From a virus (taxonomy: Duplodnaviria; Caudoviricetes), in IMG/VR virus record IMGVR_UViG_3300030101_003097, positions 1-31,220 of that record: a DNA stretch of 31,220 nucleotides; one strand, written 5' to 3'. A program made the position numbers and the translations under genes. Below the pieces are notes generated by a model. That model saw only the letters and a program-made list of their open reading frames with translations. It made no database searches and was not told the DNA's origin. Below, piece by piece: positions 9,736 to 19,429 of the stretch; within the stretch, counting starts at the first letter, position 1, and every line of letters starts with the position of its first letter.

Positions 9736-10923
9736 TTACAACTCCGCAGAAAAGGAAACTTTTGCATCATTATGGTTAGCAATAACCATAGAAGAATGAC
9801 CAGCAGTTCTTCCTGATATTCCATCATTGCTATAAGCATTTAAAACTGACATATTTTCATTACTATTCCACAATGAACTAAATGTATTAAAACCATCGTT
9901 TGAATCGTTTGAATATACCAAATAATAACTTGTACCTGTTACAACTTCCAAAGAAGGTTTTGCTCTCATAGTTGTTGGAAAATAAATATAAGTAAAGAGG
10001 TTGTTATTTGCATACATAACTCCAACACCTACAGAGTCCTGTCCGTCACCAATTATACCCCCAACGTGTCGGTAGTAATACCTCTGACATAAAGCAAGCT
10101 CCTGACCGAATGACTTAAATTCGAAGTCGCTCGAAAATGACCCTACTTCTAATTGAACTCCCGTCACATCAAATGTTGCATTAGTTGTAGTTGCCCATGT
10201 TGTTGTCATATCAGGCCAACGAGTCAATCCACTTCCTGTAGTGTTCCAAGCGTTAAAAGTACCACTTCCACCAGTAAATTGTGTTCCATAATATGGAATA
10301 AATGAAAGTATAAGGCCAATGCCATTATCATTGTTTACTGTGATACCAGAGTTGCCGGGGATGGTTTTTGTTATTTTTGTCCATTGGTCAGCAGTTAAAG
10401 AAATCTCAAAAGGATAATGTCGTTGTGTTCCGTCATGGGAAGTGAGTACCCCAACATAAGATTGTGTGACACTAGCTCTAACCCAAAAAGAAACTGTAAC
10501 AAAACTAGAACTTGAAGTATAATCCCAACCACTTTGAGCAACATCTTGTGCTTCTATTCTTTGATCTATTTGTAAATATTGATTAGTTGCAGCACCAATA
10601 CCACTTTGATTTAAAAGTCTCATATACTTTCTAAATCCAAAAGTGTATGGTGTATCAGTTGTAGCTAAATCTTGTTGTGATTCTGTAATTGTACCAACTG
10701 ATATTTGCGTCATAAATCTATCTAAAGTGTGATAAGTACTTTGAGCACCAGTTGTATTGTTTGTAGTCGCACGTTGAGCCACTTGCATAGCTCCGTTAAT
10801 TATTAAATTACGATTAGGTTTATTAGTAATATTAGCAGTACACGTTCCAGCAGAACTATCAAGCGTGATAGCAGCCGTACTAGCTCCTGTTCCTTTTATG
10901 CTGTTGACTTTTATTTCTGACAT
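9736..10923 (-). CDS. tail fibre/receptor-binding protein with putative carbohydrate-binding module
   Basis: NRNLIINGAMQVAQR, TGVQLEVG...FE, ELALCQRYY, MRAKP motifs. Confidence 0.8.
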   Translation of the reverse strand: MSEIKVNSIKGTGASTAAITLDSSAGTCTANITNKPNRNLIINGAMQVAQRATTNNTTGAQSTYHTLDRFMTQISVGTITESQQDLATTDTPYTFGFRKYMRLLNQSGIGAATNQYLQIDQRIEAQDVAQSGWDYTSSSSFVTVSFWVRASVTQSYVGVLTSHDGTQRHYPFEISLTADQWTKITKTIPGNSGITVNNDNGIGLILSFIPYYGTQFTGGSGTFNAWNTTGSGLTRWPDMTTTWATTTNATFDVTGVQLEVGSFSSDFEFKSFGQELALCQRYYYRHVGGIIGDGQDSVGVGVMYANNNLFTYIYFPTTMRAKPSLEVVTGTSYYLVYSNDSNDGFNTFSSLWNSNENMSVLNAYSNDGISGRTAGHSSMVIANHNDAKVSFSAEL

Positions 10924-10925
10924 AA

Positions 10926-11240
10926 TTAACTAGGCTTTGGGTTAGCGTCTTTAACCGCTTTGATGTGGCTTGCCCACGTTCCAGTTGTATCTAGTTTACC
11001 TGCAAGCATATCGTCATACAACATTGCTAATTGCTCTCTCCAAAAACCATAAGTTTTAGAACCTGTTTCTATTCTTTTATTAATATAATCCTGTTTTGTA
11101 AATTCAGCTTCAACTGCACTCATATCTATAGAAACATCATTTCCTGATGAATCTTTAGCGGTGTAAGTTGTTCCGTCATAATTTACAACAACAACATTTG
11201 AATATAGTTGATAAATAATATTTTCTTTTTGTATTTTCAT
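10926..11240 (-). CDS. fibre-associated small protein (chaperone-like)
   Basis: EQL.MLYDD...W..HIKAVKDANPKP; paralog of 11833-12123. Confidence 0.7.
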   Translation of the reverse strand: MKIQKENIIYQLYSNVVVVNYDGTTYTAKDSSGNDVSIDMSAVEAEFTKQDYINKRIETGSKTYGFWREQLAMLYDDMLAGKLDTTGTWASHIKAVKDANPKPS

Positions 11241-11836
11241 GCTGCCACCTCCGCTAAAAATATTTGTGCAGGGCTGTAATTAGGATCGCCAACTGGAGCA
11301 TAAACAGCGTCAGAACCAAATACTCTTGAAAGTCTAAAAGAATAAGTTGTTGCTGAAGTAGTGTTTGGAGAGTCTAAATAATGTATTGTCCAAGAACCAT
11401 AGCTAGAAGCATGACCGCCTACATAAGCCAAGCCATGCGTAGAATGTCCTAGATTAGTACTTCCTCTAAAAAGGCTTAAGCCCGCAGTAGTGGTATTAGT
11501 TGTATAATAATTTCCTGATGCCAAAACGAAAACTTTGCTACTTGTAGCTGAAGGTGTAATATCTGCTGTTAATGCTGTTGTGTAAAAAGTACCAGTATTT
11601 GATGAAGCAGTTGTTCTTGCTTGTGTTTCTGCACGAACAGTTTGAAGAATTTTACCTCCCCCTGCTGCTGCAAAAGCTAAATTTCCCGAACCATCTGTTT
11701 TTAAAAAAGTATCAGCACTACCATCAGCTACAGGAAGTTGTAATTCTACAGCAGCATTGCCTGTAGTTGTTGAAGGTGCTTTAAGGCTTACTGACCCACC
11801 ACCTGATGCTGCGTTTAGTTTAATCTTTGCTGTCAT
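11237..11836 (-). CDS. short tail fibre/adhesin-like protein
   Basis: LPVADG....LKTDGSGNL.F fibre motif; GKILQ...ITPS..SSKV...EVAA C-terminal domain. Confidence 0.7.
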   Translation of the reverse strand: MTAKIKLNAASGGGSVSLKAPSTTTGNAAVELQLPVADGSADTFLKTDGSGNLAFAAAGGGKILQTVRAETQARTTASSNTGTFYTTALTADITPSATSSKVFVLASGNYYTTNTTTAGLSLFRGSTNLGHSTHGLAYVGGHASSYGSWTIHYLDSPNTTSATTYSFRLSRVFGSDAVYAPVGDPNYSPAQIFLAEVAA

Positions 11837-12123
11837 GGTTTAGGATATTTGTCTTTGGTTACTTTGATAGTAGCTTTCCAAGCATCTATACCATTATGAT
11901 AGATGTCATCTAGCTGATCTTCAATAGTTGGGTATTCTGCTTTACGTTGGCCTTGATAAGCTATCGCAGCAGCTTCGGCATTTAAAGTAACTCTTGCTGC
12001 GTCTATATCAGATTGAACAAGTGTTATTTGCGTTCCATCTTCTTTAAATGCTCCTACGCTGTCATCTATTCTTACAGCGTCAGAGTAAGCCTTGCGTATT
12101 GCTTCGTGATCTAATTTTGCCAT
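11833..12123 (-). CDS. fibre-associated small protein (chaperone-like)
   Basis: YPTIEDQLDDIYH.GIDAWK..IK..KDKYPKP. Confidence 0.7.
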   Translation of the reverse strand: MAKLDHEAIRKAYSDAVRIDDSVGAFKEDGTQITLVQSDIDAARVTLNAEAAAIAYQGQRKAEYPTIEDQLDDIYHNGIDAWKATIKVTKDKYPKP

Positions 12124-12773
12124 TACGCTCCCACCTCAATTACATGAAAAGTAGAAACGCTTTGATAATCATCATTATTAAATCTGTTTAAATAAAAAGT
12201 ACCACCGCCAGTTCTCCAAAAAGGACTGTAAGTTCTTGCAGTAGTATTACCAGAAGTTTCGTAAGCTACAATCGGAACAACCATCATAAAATTGGTATTA
12301 ACATAAAAACTTCCTATACCATCTTCATTTGCACTAAAATCATCTGGCTGCATAACTTCTGATGATGTTCCAGAAAAATCAGTTGCCGTATTTCTTCTTA
12401 ATCTTATAGTACCTGCATTGTTATTAAGATTTACCATAAGAAATGCTTGAACGATAATAAGACTATCTGAAGCCGTTGGCGTTAATGTAATCCGAAAATC
12501 ACTACTTATTTCTGAATAAGTTCCAGAAGTAGTAGATGGCGAATTAGTTTTTTTAGAGGTTTTCCATTGAAGAAGTTTTCCATTACTTATTCCAGTACCA
12601 GTAACACCGCTATTACTTATTGACATTCTTTCAACACCACCAGTAGCAAACTTAATAGTGTCAGCAGAAGGGAATGTTATACCAGTATTGCTATCCGTTC
12701 CAGTTACAGCAGGGGCAGATACGCTTCCATCAACCCCAGAAATACCAGTAGTGCCGTTAATGTTTAAAGCCAT
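12123..12773 (-). CDS. short tail fibre/adhesin-like protein
   Basis: DSNTGITFP.ADTI.F.TGG.ERM motif; GKLLQ...ITLTP...EVGA domain paralogous to 11237-11836. Confidence 0.7.
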   Translation of the reverse strand: MALNINGTTGISGVDGSVSAPAVTGTDSNTGITFPSADTIKFATGGVERMSISNSGVTGTGISNGKLLQWKTSKKTNSPSTTSGTYSEISSDFRITLTPTASDSLIIVQAFLMVNLNNNAGTIRLRRNTATDFSGTSSEVMQPDDFSANEDGIGSFYVNTNFMMVVPIVAYETSGNTTARTYSPFWRTGGGTFYLNRFNNDDYQSVSTFHVIEVGA

Positions 12774-12775
12774 AA

Positions 12776-13360
12776 TTAAAGAATAACTAAAATTGCTCCG
12801 CTTGGCACGGTTATTGTGACACCCGAATTTATAGTCGGGCTGACCGTGTGAGCGTTTTTACCGCTACTAAGGGTGTAACTTGTAGTGGCAGCTTGGTCGG
12901 ACTCAAAGAAAACTTCGTCGGTCCCGCCTCCGGTAGCTCCCGCACCTCCACCTATCGCACCCCACGCACCGTTATTATATCCTTCGAACTGATTTAAAGT
13001 ACTATTATGACGAAACATTCCAACCGCAGGGGAACCGTCTCTTTGTGCCGTCGTTCCACTCGGGATATTTAAACTTGACGTATAATTATGAATTACTTTT
13101 CCGGTAAAAGTACCACCCGTAAGAGGTGCTAAACCGAAAGCCGTAGTAGCTACAGGGCCTATCGTAACGTAACCATTATTCGCGGCGTTTCTAATTTTTA
13201 AGTTTCCATCAGATGTATCAACGTGCCATTGATATGCATAGTTTGTAGTTAAAGCACCGGACTTACTATTATTAGACGCTATAGCTTGAAATAAATTATT
13301 TAAGTCAGTTCTTACCGCACTTCCCGTTCCGTTATCAATTATAAAATCATGTTCAGCCAT
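12776..13360 (-). CDS. tail fibre base/proximal structural protein
   Basis: HDF.IDN.TG.AVR.DLN, IPSGTTAQR...G.FR.N....FEGY motifs; directly downstream of J. Confidence 0.7.
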   Translation of the reverse strand: MAEHDFIIDNGTGSAVRTDLNNLFQAIASNNSKSGALTTNYAYQWHVDTSDGNLKIRNAANNGYVTIGPVATTAFGLAPLTGGTFTGKVIHNYTSSLNIPSGTTAQRDGSPAVGMFRHNSTLNQFEGYNNGAWGAIGGGAGATGGGTDEVFFESDQAATTSYTLSSGKNAHTVSPTINSGVTITVPSGAILVIL

Positions 13361-13386: not shown

Positions 13387-16300
13387 TCAGCCTTTACCAA
13401 ATCCGACAGCTTGATATGTAAAATTTCTATCTATTGAAGCATTTGAACTGTTTTTAAATTCTACGGTGAAACCGGTAGATGCTACGTTGGTTACTAAAAA
13501 ATAATCCCCGCTAACCATATTTTGTGCATTGATACCAACCGAAGGTAAATTACTGTTGGCACCTAAAATAGAACTCGTTCCAACAAAAAACGGGTGTTGA
13601 AAAGTAATATTTTTTTGTCCCGCCCCGCTTGCGGTTACGTTTCCTTGCTCGGTTCTTCTTTGTATAGAGGCTGTATAACCTATTTGCGATACTTTTATAT
13701 CTTGAGCGACATCATTGCTAGTAAGTTTTGCCCTAAATTGGAATCCTCTTCCTTTATATGTACCGTTTGCAAATGTTTGGAAATCAGTATAAGTAGGCGA
13801 ACCTGAGGGATTATCTTGCGTTACACGGACTAGCATTTCAGCGTTGACTTCCGTAGCAGTAGCACCGTCAAAATCCGTAATACTATCAATTAAACCTCTA
13901 GAATCGAATAAATCGGAAGGATAAAAAGCTTCGGTTAAAAAATGTCTTTTTAAATCTAAACTAAATACTCCACCTAAATCTAAAGTATCGCCACCGGCTG
14001 TACCTCCAAAATCATAAGTTCCTAGAGGTACTATGCCACCAAAATCATCTAAAGAGCCAACAGCATCAAAATCGGTTATATCGTCAAAATTTCCTCCACC
14101 AACAAGGTTTATAGTATTTGTAGTCGCATCAAAGGCCACATTACTTTTAGTCCCTTGAAACTTAGGACTATCTAAATCTTCTCTTCTAGTTTGTGCTATT
14201 AAAGGAGCAAGGTTATCCGGTAAATCAATTATTACGCTCGTTTCTCCCGCACTAAATCTTCCGCCATCATCACGAAATTTTAAAATATATTCGCCTTCTA
14301 GATAAGGGACTTCCGCTGTTGTAGTATTACCGGCCAAAGCTTCTATAAGATCGGTACTATTAGAAAAAGTTGCGTTTCCATTTGTAAGTGGAGAGTGCCT
14401 TACATACACTCGGCCACCGTGCGTCACATCCAGATCGGTTGCTAAATTCCAACGAAGTCTTACTAATTTTTCGTTAATAGGTTCCGCCGACAAACCCGTA
14501 ACGTTACTAGGAACTGCAGTTTTTCCTACCGCGTTAAAAGTTAAGTTAGTAGAGGTTGCGGATAATTCTAAAGCCGTATTAAAACTAAAAACTTCTATTT
14601 CATAAGTACCAATAGACGTATTAAATATTTCGAAGTCGGGGCTAGAAACAGTATTAGAAACAAAATTACCATTATTAAATCTATAGTTAACTTGATATTG
14701 AGTAACGCCGGTAATAGGTTGCCAACTAATTATCAATTTACTTACGGCCTGATTATTTATAACAACTAATTTTTCTTCAGCTTGTAAAGCATTAGGGGGG
14801 TCTTTTAATTCATTTAAAATACTTACGGTCCTTGTAGGTAAAGAGGCCCCGTCTTCTATAAAGGCATATTTTTCATTAACGTAAGATAAAGCTGTAATCG
14901 TATAATTAATTCCGTCAACTTCTTCGACCGTTATAACCCTATAAAGTTGGGATTTAACGGTATCATTTGAAATAATCCAATTAGCATTAACGTTAGGAGT
15001 TTGAGAAAAAGCAGATGCAACTGTAATCGTCGCACCACTTACGGAGCTTATATTTTTACTTTCTATAGTGCCGTCGGGCATAATTACACTTAAAACCGGA
15101 TTGTTTGCGGTAGGTAAGTCTGTATTAGCCGAATTATCAACCGTAAGGACCGTCGTAGAAGTAACCGAAGCAATCTTACCTCCGCGTCTTAAACCGCTTC
15201 TAACAGGGTCTGCAATAGCTATTACAGCACTTGGTCTTACTACTACGCCGCTATCTATAGAAGTAGAAAAAGTAACGACTTCTGATTCATTTTGCTCTGC
15301 GAATAATATTGCTTTTCCTAAACGGGCCGCTTGACCTCTAGAAGTACACGCGAAAGCTTTTACTTGTTTTATTATCGAACCAAATTTAGCTATAGCGTTA
15401 GCATCTTCTACGACTTCAAAATCTATTTCTTGGGTATCCATATTAAAATAAGAAACCGAAACTACACTGTGTCGTTGCTTTAAACTACTACCGCTATAGT
15501 TAAAACCCTCGCTTGTCACGTTACTGAGGTTAAATAAATAACTTGCCGACGCAGGGCTATCTTGCTTAAGGCTTATACTTCCGGCGGTCCATATAGGCAT
15601 ACATCTCATTACGCCGGATAATTCATTAATAAGGTCGAAGGCCTCGCCGGAACCTTGAATATTTACATTGCATGAGAACCTCGCCTCTTGTCCTCCGAAA
15701 CCGTCGCTAACTAGAGTATTAGCAAACTTACTAGCCGTTACAAACGAAAATAAATCTAAATTACTATCGCTTATATGATCGCCAAAACCATAACGACTAT
15801 TAGTCAAAAGGTCTAATAAAATCATAGCGGGGCAAGATGTCCATACCGCCGCTCCCATAGTTCCGTTAAAAATATAACCTTCGGGATAAACTATTCTTCC
15901 GGTCGTGGCGTCAACTGTCGGAGTGCCGGAACTATTTGCACCCGCCGCCGGAATACGGACCTTTATACCTCTAACTCTAAATTTACGGCGTGGGATAGAC
16001 CCAAACTGCATTGAATCTAACCTTATAGCGGCGTACGCACTATTAGCGTAAGTATTAGAGTCGTCTATTATTTCAGCGATACTTGTCCACTGAAAAGCAT
16101 TAATTAAAGATGAGTTTGTACTATCCGGAGTAATTCTAGAAACCCTTATATCTACCGGAAAAGCACCGGTTAAATTAACGCGATAATCTCTTTGATAAGC
16201 GTCTGCAGTTCGGCCCGTTACTGTATCGGTAATAACGTCGGTAAAACCTCCCGAATTATATTGCACCGATATTTTAAATTGAACACTAGAACCTAATAAA

Positions 16301-16788
16301 TCTCCTTTATCGGTAGCCTCTTGAATTTGCGGAAAACTTATCGTTATTTTAGCCGCGTCAACATTACTATTTGTTATTTGTCTTGTTACCGGAGCAGCCA
16401 CAGTAACGGTAGTGCCAACCCCAGTTACAGATGAGCTACTTTCTATACCCGCTATTTTTGTTTGGTTACTCGTACCAAAACGGGGTGTAAAATCAACGTC
16501 TTTAAAATTAAAATCTACATCGGTAGGACTTGCGGAATTTGCGTTTGATCTTAAAACGGGCGTGTCGTTAAGAAAAACATCTTTAAGAGCGGCGTTATTA
16601 TAAGCCGTAGTTCCTTTAGTTAACCCTTCTTTAGATGCTGATGCAAAACCTTCGATTTCGCCTTCACTTATCAAATCTAAGAAAGTTGCAAACTGCCTAC
16701 TATGTAAAGTATCAGGAGTTCTAGTCGGTTGGGGTGGTGGTGGCGGAGAACCTCCTCCTCCGGAACCTCTAATAATTTTTTTAGTCAT
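13387..16788 (-). CDS. tail tip attachment/host specificity protein (lambda gpJ-like)
   Basis: 1133 aa; DLISEGEIEG, RF.CN, ACTSRGQA.RLG motifs, FN3-like segments; M-L-K-I-J synteny. Confidence 0.92.
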   Translation of the reverse strand: MTKKIIRGSGGGGSPPPPPQPTRTPDTLHSRQFATFLDLISEGEIEGFASASKEGLTKGTTAYNNAALKDVFLNDTPVLRSNANSASPTDVDFNFKDVDFTPRFGTSNQTKIAGIESSSSVTGVGTTVTVAAPVTRQITNSNVDAAKITISFPQIQEATDKGDLLGSSVQFKISVQYNSGGFTDVITDTVTGRTADAYQRDYRVNLTGAFPVDIRVSRITPDSTNSSLINAFQWTSIAEIIDDSNTYANSAYAAIRLDSMQFGSIPRRKFRVRGIKVRIPAAGANSSGTPTVDATTGRIVYPEGYIFNGTMGAAVWTSCPAMILLDLLTNSRYGFGDHISDSNLDLFSFVTASKFANTLVSDGFGGQEARFSCNVNIQGSGEAFDLINELSGVMRCMPIWTAGSISLKQDSPASASYLFNLSNVTSEGFNYSGSSLKQRHSVVSVSYFNMDTQEIDFEVVEDANAIAKFGSIIKQVKAFACTSRGQAARLGKAILFAEQNESEVVTFSTSIDSGVVVRPSAVIAIADPVRSGLRRGGKIASVTSTTVLTVDNSANTDLPTANNPVLSVIMPDGTIESKNISSVSGATITVASAFSQTPNVNANWIISNDTVKSQLYRVITVEEVDGINYTITALSYVNEKYAFIEDGASLPTRTVSILNELKDPPNALQAEEKLVVINNQAVSKLIISWQPITGVTQYQVNYRFNNGNFVSNTVSSPDFEIFNTSIGTYEIEVFSFNTALELSATSTNLTFNAVGKTAVPSNVTGLSAEPINEKLVRLRWNLATDLDVTHGGRVYVRHSPLTNGNATFSNSTDLIEALAGNTTTAEVPYLEGEYILKFRDDGGRFSAGETSVIIDLPDNLAPLIAQTRREDLDSPKFQGTKSNVAFDATTNTINLVGGGNFDDITDFDAVGSLDDFGGIVPLGTYDFGGTAGGDTLDLGGVFSLDLKRHFLTEAFYPSDLFDSRGLIDSITDFDGATATEVNAEMLVRVTQDNPSGSPTYTDFQTFANGTYKGRGFQFRAKLTSNDVAQDIKVSQIGYTASIQRRTEQGNVTASGAGQKNITFQHPFFVGTSSILGANSNLPSVGINAQNMVSGDYFLVTNVASTGFTVEFKNSSNASIDRNFTYQAVGFGKG

Positions 16789-17399
16789 GCTCTTACTTGT
16801 TCAGTATCTACGGCCCCGCTTATTACTACCGAGCCAGTAAAAATTTCTCCATAAACTAAAGGAACTGGAGTTCCCGCCCTCGTAGTTTGTTGTGTACCAC
16901 TAAAATTAAAAGATATTCTAGGGTCTTGCTCGCTATTAAAGTCCGGTAATTTTGGAACCGGAAATAACATATCACTAACGCCGGATAATAAAAGTCCGGC
17001 ACCTATACCAAAAGCTGCTTTAGCTCCCATACCGGCGGCAGCAAATCCAAAACCTTTAGCACCAAAAGCTAACGGATTAGCAAAAAGACCTCCTACGCCA
17101 AAAGATAAAGCTATTAATGCTCCGCCTAATAATATTTTTCCTATGCCTCGACCGGCACCTTGTATGACCGGCACAAAATGTATATCCTCTTGTCCTATAG
17201 GGTGGTGTATTTCGTTTTCGTCTATCGAATAATTACCAACTTTAACTTGGTAATATTTAGGATTCATATATTCTTCTATTCCTGCAAAATTATTAATTAA
17301 AAAACTTACGGCTTGACTTAAAGTTTCTACTTTTACTTCAAACTCTTTATGACCAACAAAATTGGCTAACTCTCCGTAAACTTTTATTTTACGCAACAT
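16785..17399 (-). CDS. tail assembly protein (lambda gpI-like)
   Basis: Ubiquitin-like N-terminus ending VPVIQGAG, hydrophobic Gly-rich middle, G.PVPLVYGE..TGSVVIS. Confidence 0.9.
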   Translation of the reverse strand: MLRKIKVYGELANFVGHKEFEVKVETLSQAVSFLINNFAGIEEYMNPKYYQVKVGNYSIDENEIHHPIGQEDIHFVPVIQGAGRGIGKILLGGALIALSFGVGGLFANPLAFGAKGFGFAAAGMGAKAAFGIGAGLLLSGVSDMLFPVPKLPDFNSEQDPRISFNFSGTQQTTRAGTPVPLVYGEIFTGSVVISGAVDTEQVRA

Positions 17400-18090
17400 A
17401 ACGTAACCTCTTGCCGGTACATTTTAAAAGCCACTCCGAGTAAGGCTCTATACAACTTAGTCTATCGGTTAAATGATGTAAAACATCGCCGTCTAAAAAA
17501 ATTGCCACATGATTTAAACCCGAAGTTAAAATAGACATAAATAAAAGGTCGCCATATTTAAGTTTTTCGTCGGGTCTTAATTCTCTAAAACCTGTTCTCC
17601 AAGCACACCTTTCAAACATAGGGTCTTTATTAAAATCTTCTAAGGTAGTGGGTCTTTCCCAATCTTTTAAATTTATATTTAGTTTTTCTTTATAAAAGTC
17701 CCTTACTAGCGTATAGCAATCGTTTACCGCCCACGCCCACTCTCTACCTATTAGGGGAGCTTTATATCCGGAGGGTTCTAAACTACCCCAAGTTTCTGTT
17801 TTAGGATTTACTATATGCCATTTTAAACCACTTTGTTCGCAAGCAACTTTATCGCTTTGACTAGGAACGGGCGGTGTTACGGGGTGGCTATGAACTATCG
17901 CAATAATATCGCCTAAATTATCTCCTTTTACATAATCTTCGGGGTCTAAAATAAAACATTGATGAGCGGTCTGACTTAAATTACCACAAGGAAAATATTT
18001 TTCTTTGCCCCTTATATTTAATAACAGGCCACAGGATTCTTTAGGGTCTTGGTCTTTCGCATGAGCAAGTGCTTCTTCTTTCCAAGTCAT
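17389..18090 (-). CDS. tail assembly protein (lambda gpK-like; JAB/MPN + NlpC/P60)
   Basis: ESCG, HSHP....PSQSD JAMM motif; DCY.LVRD...NH.AI NlpC/P60 motif. Confidence 0.92.
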   Translation of the reverse strand: MTWKEEALAHAKDQDPKESCGLLLNIRGKEKYFPCGNLSQTAHQCFILDPEDYVKGDNLGDIIAIVHSHPVTPPVPSQSDKVACEQSGLKWHIVNPKTETWGSLEPSGYKAPLIGREWAWAVNDCYTLVRDFYKEKLNINLKDWERPTTLEDFNKDPMFERCAWRTGFRELRPDEKLKYGDLLFMSILTSGLNHVAIFLDGDVLHHLTDRLSCIEPYSEWLLKCTGKRLRYVA

Positions 18091-19085
18091 GCTATAAAAG
18101 TTCCTATCGAAGGAAAATCGGCTCTAGTGCATTGTCTTTTTGGAGCTCTAATACCGGCAAGATCAAAAACGGCGGCAAGTTCAAAAGTAACTACTTCTCT
18201 ATTTTCACTAGCTTTTCTATCTATTTTATAAACTTCGCGTGGAAACTCTGCGGTAGGGTCCGGTGTTCCTAAATTATTTACTTGTTGCGTAGATGTAGTA
18301 GTAGTAGTTTGCGTAGTGGTATTAGGATTATTCATAGTAATAGTATTACCCATAGCGTTTCCGTGTACGGTGCAATAATATCTTAAATCCGAAGGAGCGT
18401 CAGGGTAAGGAGGTTGAAAAGTAACCGAGCTGCCGGCGGACCCTTGAGTTCCCGCAACAGTAACGCCTGTTGAATATGAAGCACCCGAATTTTGTTTTAT
18501 TCTTAGCGGGTGTCCACTATTTGAAGAATCTGATTGATCAAAAATATAAGTAGACCCACGTTTCATAGTTATAACGGGGTTGTTAACTCCGTTTAAAAGA
18601 AATATATTTACACCCCCGACATTTGCAACCGTTACCGTATAAGTTACCGTTTCCGCGTCGGCGGGGTCGGCTATAGTAGTAGTCGAGGTAGATGTGGTTG
18701 TAGTTACGGGAAAATTTATATTATCAAGATAGCGGGCAAGGGTTCTTATTCTTGTAACCGTCGCTCCGGTCAAATCATTACCTACGGTAACGGCGTTAAC
18801 GTTTAACAAAATAGCGGTTATAGTTCCTAAAGCATTTGATACCGTAAGGGTAGGGCGTGGAAGTTGCCCTCTTTGATATGCAAAACCTTCAGCTTTTATA
18901 GGAAGTTTTATATAACTATTACCGGCCCAAACAACATCGCCTTGATTATTTAAACTCGTACAATTATGAAACCTATAAGTTTGAGATGAGCCGTGTAAAG
19001 CTAAAGTAGTTTCTAAAGTAAAAAGTTCTATTATCGAAGAAGGATTTATTTTTTGTAAATCGCTAATAATAGGGCCTGTGCTCAT
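18087..19085 (-). CDS. minor tail protein (lambda gpL-like) with inserted cupredoxin-like domain
   Basis: IELF, W.G..Y...PI..EGF, PRPTLTVSN, DL.GA.VTR.RT.A.YLD..NF, IDRK..E....V.FELA motifs; about 140-aa insert. Confidence 0.88.
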   Translation of the reverse strand: MSTGPIISDLQKINPSSIIELFTLETTLALHGSSQTYRFHNCTSLNNQGDVVWAGNSYIKLPIKAEGFAYQRGQLPRPTLTVSNALGTITAILLNVNAVTVGNDLTGATVTRIRTLARYLDNINFPVTTTTSTSTTTIADPADAETVTYTVTVANVGGVNIFLLNGVNNPVITMKRGSTYIFDQSDSSNSGHPLRIKQNSGASYSTGVTVAGTQGSAGSSVTFQPPYPDAPSDLRYYCTVHGNAMGNTITMNNPNTTTQTTTTTSTQQVNNLGTPDPTAEFPREVYKIDRKASENREVVTFELAAVFDLAGIRAPKRQCTRADFPSIGTFIA

Positions 19086-19429
19086 GGCTCAAAAACCTCC
19101 CGAAAAGTAGCAGATATAGTCGCTCGATCTTTTGTATATATATTTTTAGACCATTTATCACAAACAAATTTCATAGCACTAGGTTCTTCTGGCGGGGTAA
19201 AATCAAAACTAGCTTGGTCGTTCGCACGAGCATCTAAAAAAGTTTCAATAGTATCGGCATCTGTTTCGCTTACGTTAAAAGTTAAGTTAAATATTTTTGG
19301 GTTTTGGTTTTGGGCTAACCCAAACATAATTCTATGCTCATAACCGTCGGCAAATCTAACGGTCCTAGTTACCGGTGCATTATTTTTTCTAGTTCCGTAT
19401 GTAGGTTGTATTGAAGGAAAAGTAGCCAT
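19082..19429 (-). CDS. minor tail protein (lambda gpM-like, distal tail)
   Basis: V.F.DGYE.R...G, FLDAR....SFDFTPP, ATFREVFEP. Confidence 0.9.
   Translation of the reverse strand: MATFPSIQPTYGTRKNNAPVTRTVRFADGYEHRIMFGLAQNQNPKIFNLTFNVSETDADTIETFLDARANDQASFDFTPPEEPSAMKFVCDKWSKNIYTKDRATISATFREVFEP

Follow-up and report, generated by a model that had tools for sequence, protein, structure and literature searches.

The tail hub protein gpL of the phage studied here is a lambda-type hub that lacks the Fe-S domain and carries, in one loop, a 142-residue insert whose core is predicted to adopt a cupredoxin fold and whose sequence holds a conserved type-1 copper ligand set. Comparison with related genes indicates that the insert is optional, with repeated gain, loss, and swapping, and that it is independent of Fe-S loss. 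We give about an even chance to the interpretation that this is an "evolved" gpL, in which the optional cupredoxin cassette serves as a copper-holding, non-essential host-contact knob. In the open literature that was searched, neither a cupredoxin nor a copper-type metal site is described for phage tail proteins, although some members of the domain family carry automatic blue-copper labels.

The window, which is the whole stretch of DNA analyzed, comprises 31,220 bases with a GC content of 38% and a CheckV completeness of 81%. Its minus strand encodes a siphovirus morphogenesis operon with genes for terminase, portal, head, connectors, major tail protein, and tape measure, the M-L-K-I-J series, and small fiber genes. 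The 332-aa gpL hub gene (18087..19085, minus strand) matches PF05100 and TIGR01600. Its neighbors, all on the minus strand, are gpM, the distal tail protein in a plain 115-aa form that in some relatives has an insert of ~74 aa (19082..19429); gpK with JAB and NlpC/P60 domains (17389..18090); the tail assembly protein gpI (16785..17399; phrog_32); and the central fiber gpJ (13387..16788). A side-fiber module at 9736-13360 contains two related fiber-tip genes (216 and 199 aa), with one of a pair of related ~100-aa genes (phrog_9114) behind each of them, and then a 395-aa fiber-like gene. The major capsid protein shares 70 to 79% identity with its counterparts in cyanophages KBS-S-2A, S-H1, MED4-184, P-HS2, and MED4-117. 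The phage is marine, and its low GC content and gpL type suggest a host that is likely of the Prochlorococcus type. In MED4-184, the ORF next after gpL (L081:6555-7523; 322 aa) joins a gpK-like JAB N terminus to gpI-like sequence; the NlpC/P60 part is missing by eye.

The window gpL scored 91.2 bits against PF05100 (cutoff, 25) and 114.3 against TIGR01600 (cutoff, 70.75). In the full-length model, residues 5-317 aligned only with residues 5-164 of lambda gpL, which constitute hub domain I (PDB 8IYK chain L; PMC10721106; Z 16.6, rmsd 3.9, 157 residues). These scores, the shared hub domain I fold, and the M-L-K-I-J gene order place the protein in the lambda gpL family. Hub domain I is encoded in two parts, residues 1-126 (18708..19085, minus strand; PF05100 and structural alignment with lambda gpL) and residues 269-317 (18135..18281, minus strand; structural alignment). 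The lambda protein holds a 4Fe-4S cluster through C173, C182, C205, and C212, according to PMC10721106, where the function of the lambda-type cluster is called uncharacterized. In contrast, the C terminus of the window gpL (18087..18134, minus strand) is short, and alignment with KBS-S-2A and S-H1 shows that ~55 residues with the four Fe-S cysteines are deleted. The initial annotation had proposed that this gpL lacks the Cys-rich Fe-S C terminus, which is borne out by the alignment and by the structural comparison with lambda gpL. It had also remarked that the C terminus keeps one Cys. That residue, C319, is present, but it is not a former ligand: it aligns to lambda M168, five residues ahead of the first ligand, C173, and a close relative that keeps the Fe-S domain (L131) has the same "RQC" cysteine, also aligned to lambda M168, plus all four ligands. 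Since C319 occupies a nonligand column, all four Fe-S ligands are gone from the window gpL, and C319 as a relic ligand is ruled out.

Homologs of gpL without Fe-S have been reported before, in PMC13243795, which also cites an earlier report on lambda homologs that lack the cluster. According to the same paper, gp25 of Alishewanella phage LSH1 is a gpL-like hub that, as in the window gpL, lacks the Fe-S cysteines; it differs in being fused to gpJ and in its C-terminal region, and the passages on it mention no cupredoxin. PMC13243795 and PMC10721106, which both cite Tam et al. 2013, differ on the universality of the Fe-S cluster. The gpL proteins of MED4-184, P-HS2, and MED4-117 resemble the window gpL in a short Cys-free C terminus, 45% identity, and low GC content, but the gpL insert is absent from these phages, which carry a gpM insert instead. 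The Fe-S-less hub of the cultured MED4-184 and P-HS2 offers a route to asking what the lambda-type cluster does.

The gpL insert comprises residues 127-268 (18282-18707) between ..NINFP and ..NNLGTPDP, in agreement with the earlier observation of an insert of ~140 aa between YLDNINFP and NNLGTPDPTAE. Compared to lambda gpL, it lies in the short loop after FLDAVNF. The window holds one copy of the domain. A contig of another run covers 18056-19300 with 1 difference, and at least 120 gpL homologs (120 listed) with 77 to 92% identity span 99 to 100% of the protein; the independent contig and the full-length homologs rule out an assembly artifact.

Within the insert, the cupredoxin-fold domain (residues 145-252; 18330..18653, minus strand), delimited by the predicted fold and the structure searches, is flanked by two Thr-rich runs, at residues 127-139 (18669..18707, minus strand) and 256-268 (18282..18320, minus strand). 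These runs had been described as Thr-rich linkers. The Thr-rich flanks are there, but instead of loose linkers they are predicted beta-strands (DSSP E127-139 and E256-268; pLDDT ~86-93), the first outgoing and the second returning. The lengths of the Thr runs and the domain were almost constant in 195 of 200 scored insert-bearing proteins, with 177 sharing one common pair and 11 differing inside the domain. In the few short Thr-run forms (6 proteins), the runs were shortened on both sides, so that the two strands co-vary in length. The Thr runs likely form a two-strand stalk. The full-length gpL model had a pTM of 0.54, and the position of the knob is therefore unsure.

The AF2 model of the 108-aa insert core, built with 66 sequences, had a pLDDT of 96.3 and a pTM of 0.88 and is a beta-sandwich of the cupredoxin superfamily. 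The top 11 Foldseek matches and the top 30 matches from VIA, a Foldseek-independent structure search of 48,161 chains, were all cupredoxin-fold proteins. The best structural match was a nitrite reductase cupredoxin domain, the N-terminal domain of the Hyphomicrobium enzyme (6TFD/2DV6; Z 9.6, rmsd 2.3, 96 aligned), and among the other small type-1 cupredoxins, rusticyanin (Z 7.8), amicyanin (Z 6.4), and plastocyanin (Z 6.2 to 6.6) shared the fold. In Foldseek, the PDB entries that ranked highest, at TM 0.51 to 0.63, were rusticyanin, two-domain laccases, and the nitrite reductase of Hyphomicrobium. Automatic annotation labels one viral cluster of the ESM Atlas, matched at 0.93, as a blue type-1 copper domain. 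The cupredoxin-like domain proposed in the initial annotation thus stood up to the AF2 and Foldseek check, with only cupredoxin matches in the top rows, and the model predicts that the insert core has the cupredoxin fold.

The insert shares with the small type-1 cupredoxins the order His...Cys-x2-His-xn-Met but differs from them in its identity of only 12 to 22%, its C-x2-H-x3-M spacing, the absence of a signal peptide, and its place as part of a virion protein. None of the Pfam models matched the insert domain. The plastocyanin models PF00127 and TIGR02656 matched neither the insert domain nor 65 relatives; a true phage PetE passes both. HHalign against phage plastocyanin gave a probability of 1.4%, with the C/H/M loop alone aligned to the plastocyanin loop, and a domain-profile search of solved structures gave a single weak match (E 0.88), with H192 on a copper oxidase HP motif. 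The insert as a plastocyanin auxiliary gene is ruled out by the failure of the plastocyanin models and the HHalign result. Four of the 66 aligned family members weakly match PF25489, an At5g54830-like domain (best E 0.002), which may point to a eukaryotic relative.

The putative ligands of the insert are His192 (18510..18512, minus strand) and the Cys238-x2-His241-x3-Met245 loop (18351..18374, minus strand), both assigned by alignment. The translation confirmed H192, C238, H241, and M245 where they had been placed, and the type-1 (blue) copper set that they were proposed to form, His...Cys-x2-His-x(2-4)-Met, is present in the insert sequence and conserved across relatives. In the model, the His lies before a strand and the Cys, His, and Met lie on the last hairpin, which we take to be the cupredoxin layout. 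C238 and H241 were invariant in 66 of 66 aligned sequences, picked by similarity, and H192 and M245 occurred in at least 90%. Conservation was also counted over the domain copies of the 150 best family representatives out of 3,880. Of 119 domains that occur singly, 117 have all four ligands (108 by pattern and 9 by eye, with the His in another context); the figure is 41 of 49 for copies from proteins with two or three domains and 7 of 78 for copies from proteins with at least 5 repeats. The last figure indicates that the ligand set is dispensable to the persistence of the domain. Met245 may be structural, since it is retained in many ligand-less repeats. In 80 of 80 gpL alleles, for which C238 and H241 were part of the selection filter, H192 and M245 were unchanged, and the His uses both codons. 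However, 41 of the 108 positions in the domain show no variation among members of the gpL clade, so that ligand invariance there is not special. The domain probably binds metal at this putative site, and it is somewhat more likely than not that the metal is copper.

The insert is missing from close relatives of the window gpL. Two loci (L087 and L089) are 91 to 95% identical to the window flanks with exactly the insert missing, and in a contig obtained by another study the stretch 18278-18729 is absent. The existence of nearly identical tail modules without the domain makes the redox-triggered ejection suggested in the initial annotation unlikely. The presence or absence of the hub cassette in near-identical phages is a natural experiment, in which the function of the site is testable with matched plus and minus phages. 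A core tree of 37 rows requires 6 changes in insert state, and well-supported branches force at least 4 of them; a single change was compatible with 0% of 200 bootstrap trees. Relatives with 92% identity in N-terminal DNA had domains that were just 79 to 80% identical, and two relatives with 66% identity in N-terminal DNA had domains that were 85 to 86% identical. These comparisons indicate that the domain is swapped, recombining separately from its gpL gene.

The domain family, which is without a Pfam model, comprises 3,880 clusters at 50% identity, a size that makes the role of the site a real question. Matches were found in 340 of 50,697 phage records, named Synechococcus (239), Cyanophage (64), Prochlorococcus (25), Pelagibacter (4), Methylophilales (4), Marine (3), and other (1), and also in 936 long proteins. 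By annotation and family matches, the bearers are tail fibers, baseplate wedges, wedge-fiber connectors, and virion structural proteins, which indicates that the family is located on exposed virion sites of marine phages. Cultured phages that carry the family include P-SSM2, S-TIM5, and Pelagibacter phage EXVC032P, whereas P-HS2 is a noncarrier. A scan of bacterial and archaeal genomes with one pattern and no range estimate gave 16 loci. A cellular origin was rejected, as the five best loci lie in phage-like contexts by eye. A 46%-identical copy in a large ORF on a Vibrio sagamiensis contig (L303) may be cellular. Five giant proteins (P0243, P0247, P0253, P0275, and P0369; 1,447 to 3,815 aa) contain 6 to 25 tandem domain copies whose His and Cys ligands are mostly lost, and one of them also has LamG and F5/8 domains.

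The family can be mistaken for a photosynthesis gene. ORF202 of phage S-SCSM2R (L295:4743-5249; PQ898602.1) is listed as petE in PMC12801897. This 168-aa protein has a tail-type cupredoxin domain at its end and fiber-like gene neighbors. It matches neither PF00127 nor TIGR02656, with only a subthreshold match to the amicyanin model, and ORF1 of the same phage is a true plastocyanin. Judged by sequence, ORF202 is likely a miscalled auxiliary metabolic gene.

How the knob might work can be sketched by analogy. The cassette would project from the tail tip on the predicted two-strand Thr stalk, with three gpL copies per tip and one knob on each, if the lambda gpL trimer is a guide. The knob would take up copper, perhaps after lysis, and the knobs would then add weak cell surface contacts before gpJ or the fibers commit. 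A close parallel is offered by the evolved Dit and evolved Tal proteins of Gram-positive siphophages (PMC7291167). These are core proteins of the tail tip in which, for some phages of a group, a loop likewise holds an optional accessory domain. The window protein has the optional loop-inserted domain but not the carbohydrate-binding module fold; its insert is a cupredoxin with a metal ligand set in a cyanophage hub. The same source describes host binding by the inserted modules of evolved Dit as weaker than that of the main receptor-binding protein. From the carbohydrate-binding inserts of evolved Dit and Tal, an accessory role of the knob in adsorption could be argued with roughly balanced chances. 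The main weakness of this argument is that adhesion alone does not explain keeping a full type-1 ligand set.

The ligand set might instead be kept because it forms a type-1 copper site that is redox active on free virions. Electrons would pass between this site and reactive oxygen species or a cell surface protein, and the site would serve in particle protection or host sensing in sunlit water. Type-1 sites in known families are electron transfer sites, and the nearest folds to the insert are electron transfer cupredoxins. The H/C/H/M set is complete, with weak side-chain alternatives being rare, and the 340 phage records are all cyanophage, Pelagibacter, Methylophilales, or marine by name, bar one. 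However, the domain has no partner and no catalytic type-2 or type-3 copper site, tail modules without it exist, and three sites per particle would presumably amount to a small capacity. We regard this explanation as unlikely. It is also rather improbable that abundant ocean phages carry true, redox-active blue-copper sites at the tail tip and that the metal takes part in contacting the host, through docking or through electron or copper exchange with a cell surface protein. If true, this would amount to a virion metallo-adhesin of a new kind, and viruses would then contribute to the bound-copper pool of the ocean.

Alternatively, the metal may be purely structural, with Zn or Cu stabilizing a small beta-sandwich, and the cassette may be a near-neutral decoration spread by recombination. 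The patchy distribution and the swapping fit this explanation, as do the ligand-less repeats in the giant proteins. Free copper is scarce in the host cytoplasm, where the protein folds. Single copies, however, keep the site (117/119) though the family persists without it, the codons of His192 vary synonymously while the amino acid is constant in 80/80 alleles, and the stalk length is fixed. Such a purely structural role is rather unlikely.

Metal receptor mimicry, raised in the initial annotation as mimicry for metal uptake receptors, would be a copper version of the Ferrojan horse in which the Cu-loaded domain binds a host metal uptake or copper-sensing protein. It would account for a conserved putative metal site at the tail tip. 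It sits poorly with the occurrence of one domain in phages whose hosts belong to four unrelated groups (Synechococcus, Prochlorococcus, Pelagibacter, and Methylophilales) and in nonfiber structural proteins, and the domain is dispensable in a phage type that has gpJ and a separate fiber module. We consider mimicry quite improbable.

The association between insert and Fe-S loss was addressed by a gpL survey of four targeted scans and three records, which yielded 285 loci with complete gpL and 218 distinct proteins; the nearest 80 were taken per scan, and the counts are not natural frequencies. Neither Fe-S domain nor insert was present in 80 of the proteins, 79 had the insert without Fe-S, 59 had Fe-S without the insert, and none had both. 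The cultured MED4-184 has a 190-aa gpL with a Cys-free tail region and no match to the insert domain in its whole record. The initial annotation had linked Cys loss to the insert and had named a survey of gpL homologs as the test that could refute it. Cys loss proved to be general in the lineage irrespective of the insert, and with 80 of 159 distinct Fe-S-less gpL proteins insert-free, as well as MED4-184 lacking both, the coupling is ruled out. The insert was seen only in Fe-S-less gpL (0/59 distinct Fe-S gpL proteins and 0/120 listed long Fe-S gpL proteins), but this one-sided pattern is expected from a single entry into one lineage. It is very improbable that the copper domain stands in for the Fe-S domain as a needed part of a hub without iron, or that it acts as a redox trigger of ejection. 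With GC content as a host proxy, the loci without Fe-S were at 32 to 41% (202 loci) and those with Fe-S at 46.5 to 56% (83 loci), counts that are not de-duplicated, indicating that Fe-S loss follows the low-GC lineage. Loss of the Fe-S domain likely came first, in this low-GC (Prochlorococcus-type) lineage; on a quick tree, the loss needs 2 changes, and 1 is also allowed. Iron saving, which by lambda stoichiometry would amount to 12 Fe per particle, is a possible reason for the Fe-S loss alone, a case built on one or two evolutionary events.

Long gpL proteins that keep the Fe-S domain carry other additions. A search for them gave 142 proteins; 120 of 120 listed keep the four Cys and have other inserts, with a cupredoxin in 0 of 120. 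In 79 of them the additions lie at the N terminus, in others they interrupt the Fe-S domain, and in 4 they lie in or next to the loop of the cupredoxin insert. Ten that were scanned contain Gly-rich, beta-barrel, and propeller domains, along with B-lectin and CBM5/12 matches that were weak and below the Pfam cutoffs. These comparisons indicate that gpL is a general platform for add-ons. The listed proteins (P0390-P0509; 358 to 583 aa), with large inserts in Fe-S domain loops or at the N terminus that look lectin-like, CBM-like, beta-barrel, or propeller, appear to be an undescribed set of "evolved" hubs. Among Fe-S-less proteins, one gpL with the cupredoxin insert (P0252) also has an N-terminal Big_5 Ig-like domain, and two relatives (L127 and L128) have a different, acidic insert of 27 aa at the same loop. 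In gpM, an optional beta-rich insert of ~74 aa occurs in phages resembling MED4-184 and in some of the window's relatives (L081:5414-5986; L105, L116, and others). All four combinations of gpL insert and gpM insert occur (63, 5, 71, and 13; the picking of ORF starts was crude, with some lengths of 1), and replacement of the gpM insert by the gpL insert was rejected on this basis. One locus (L231) encodes a 233-aa gpM with an apparent tandem duplication of the gpM domain.
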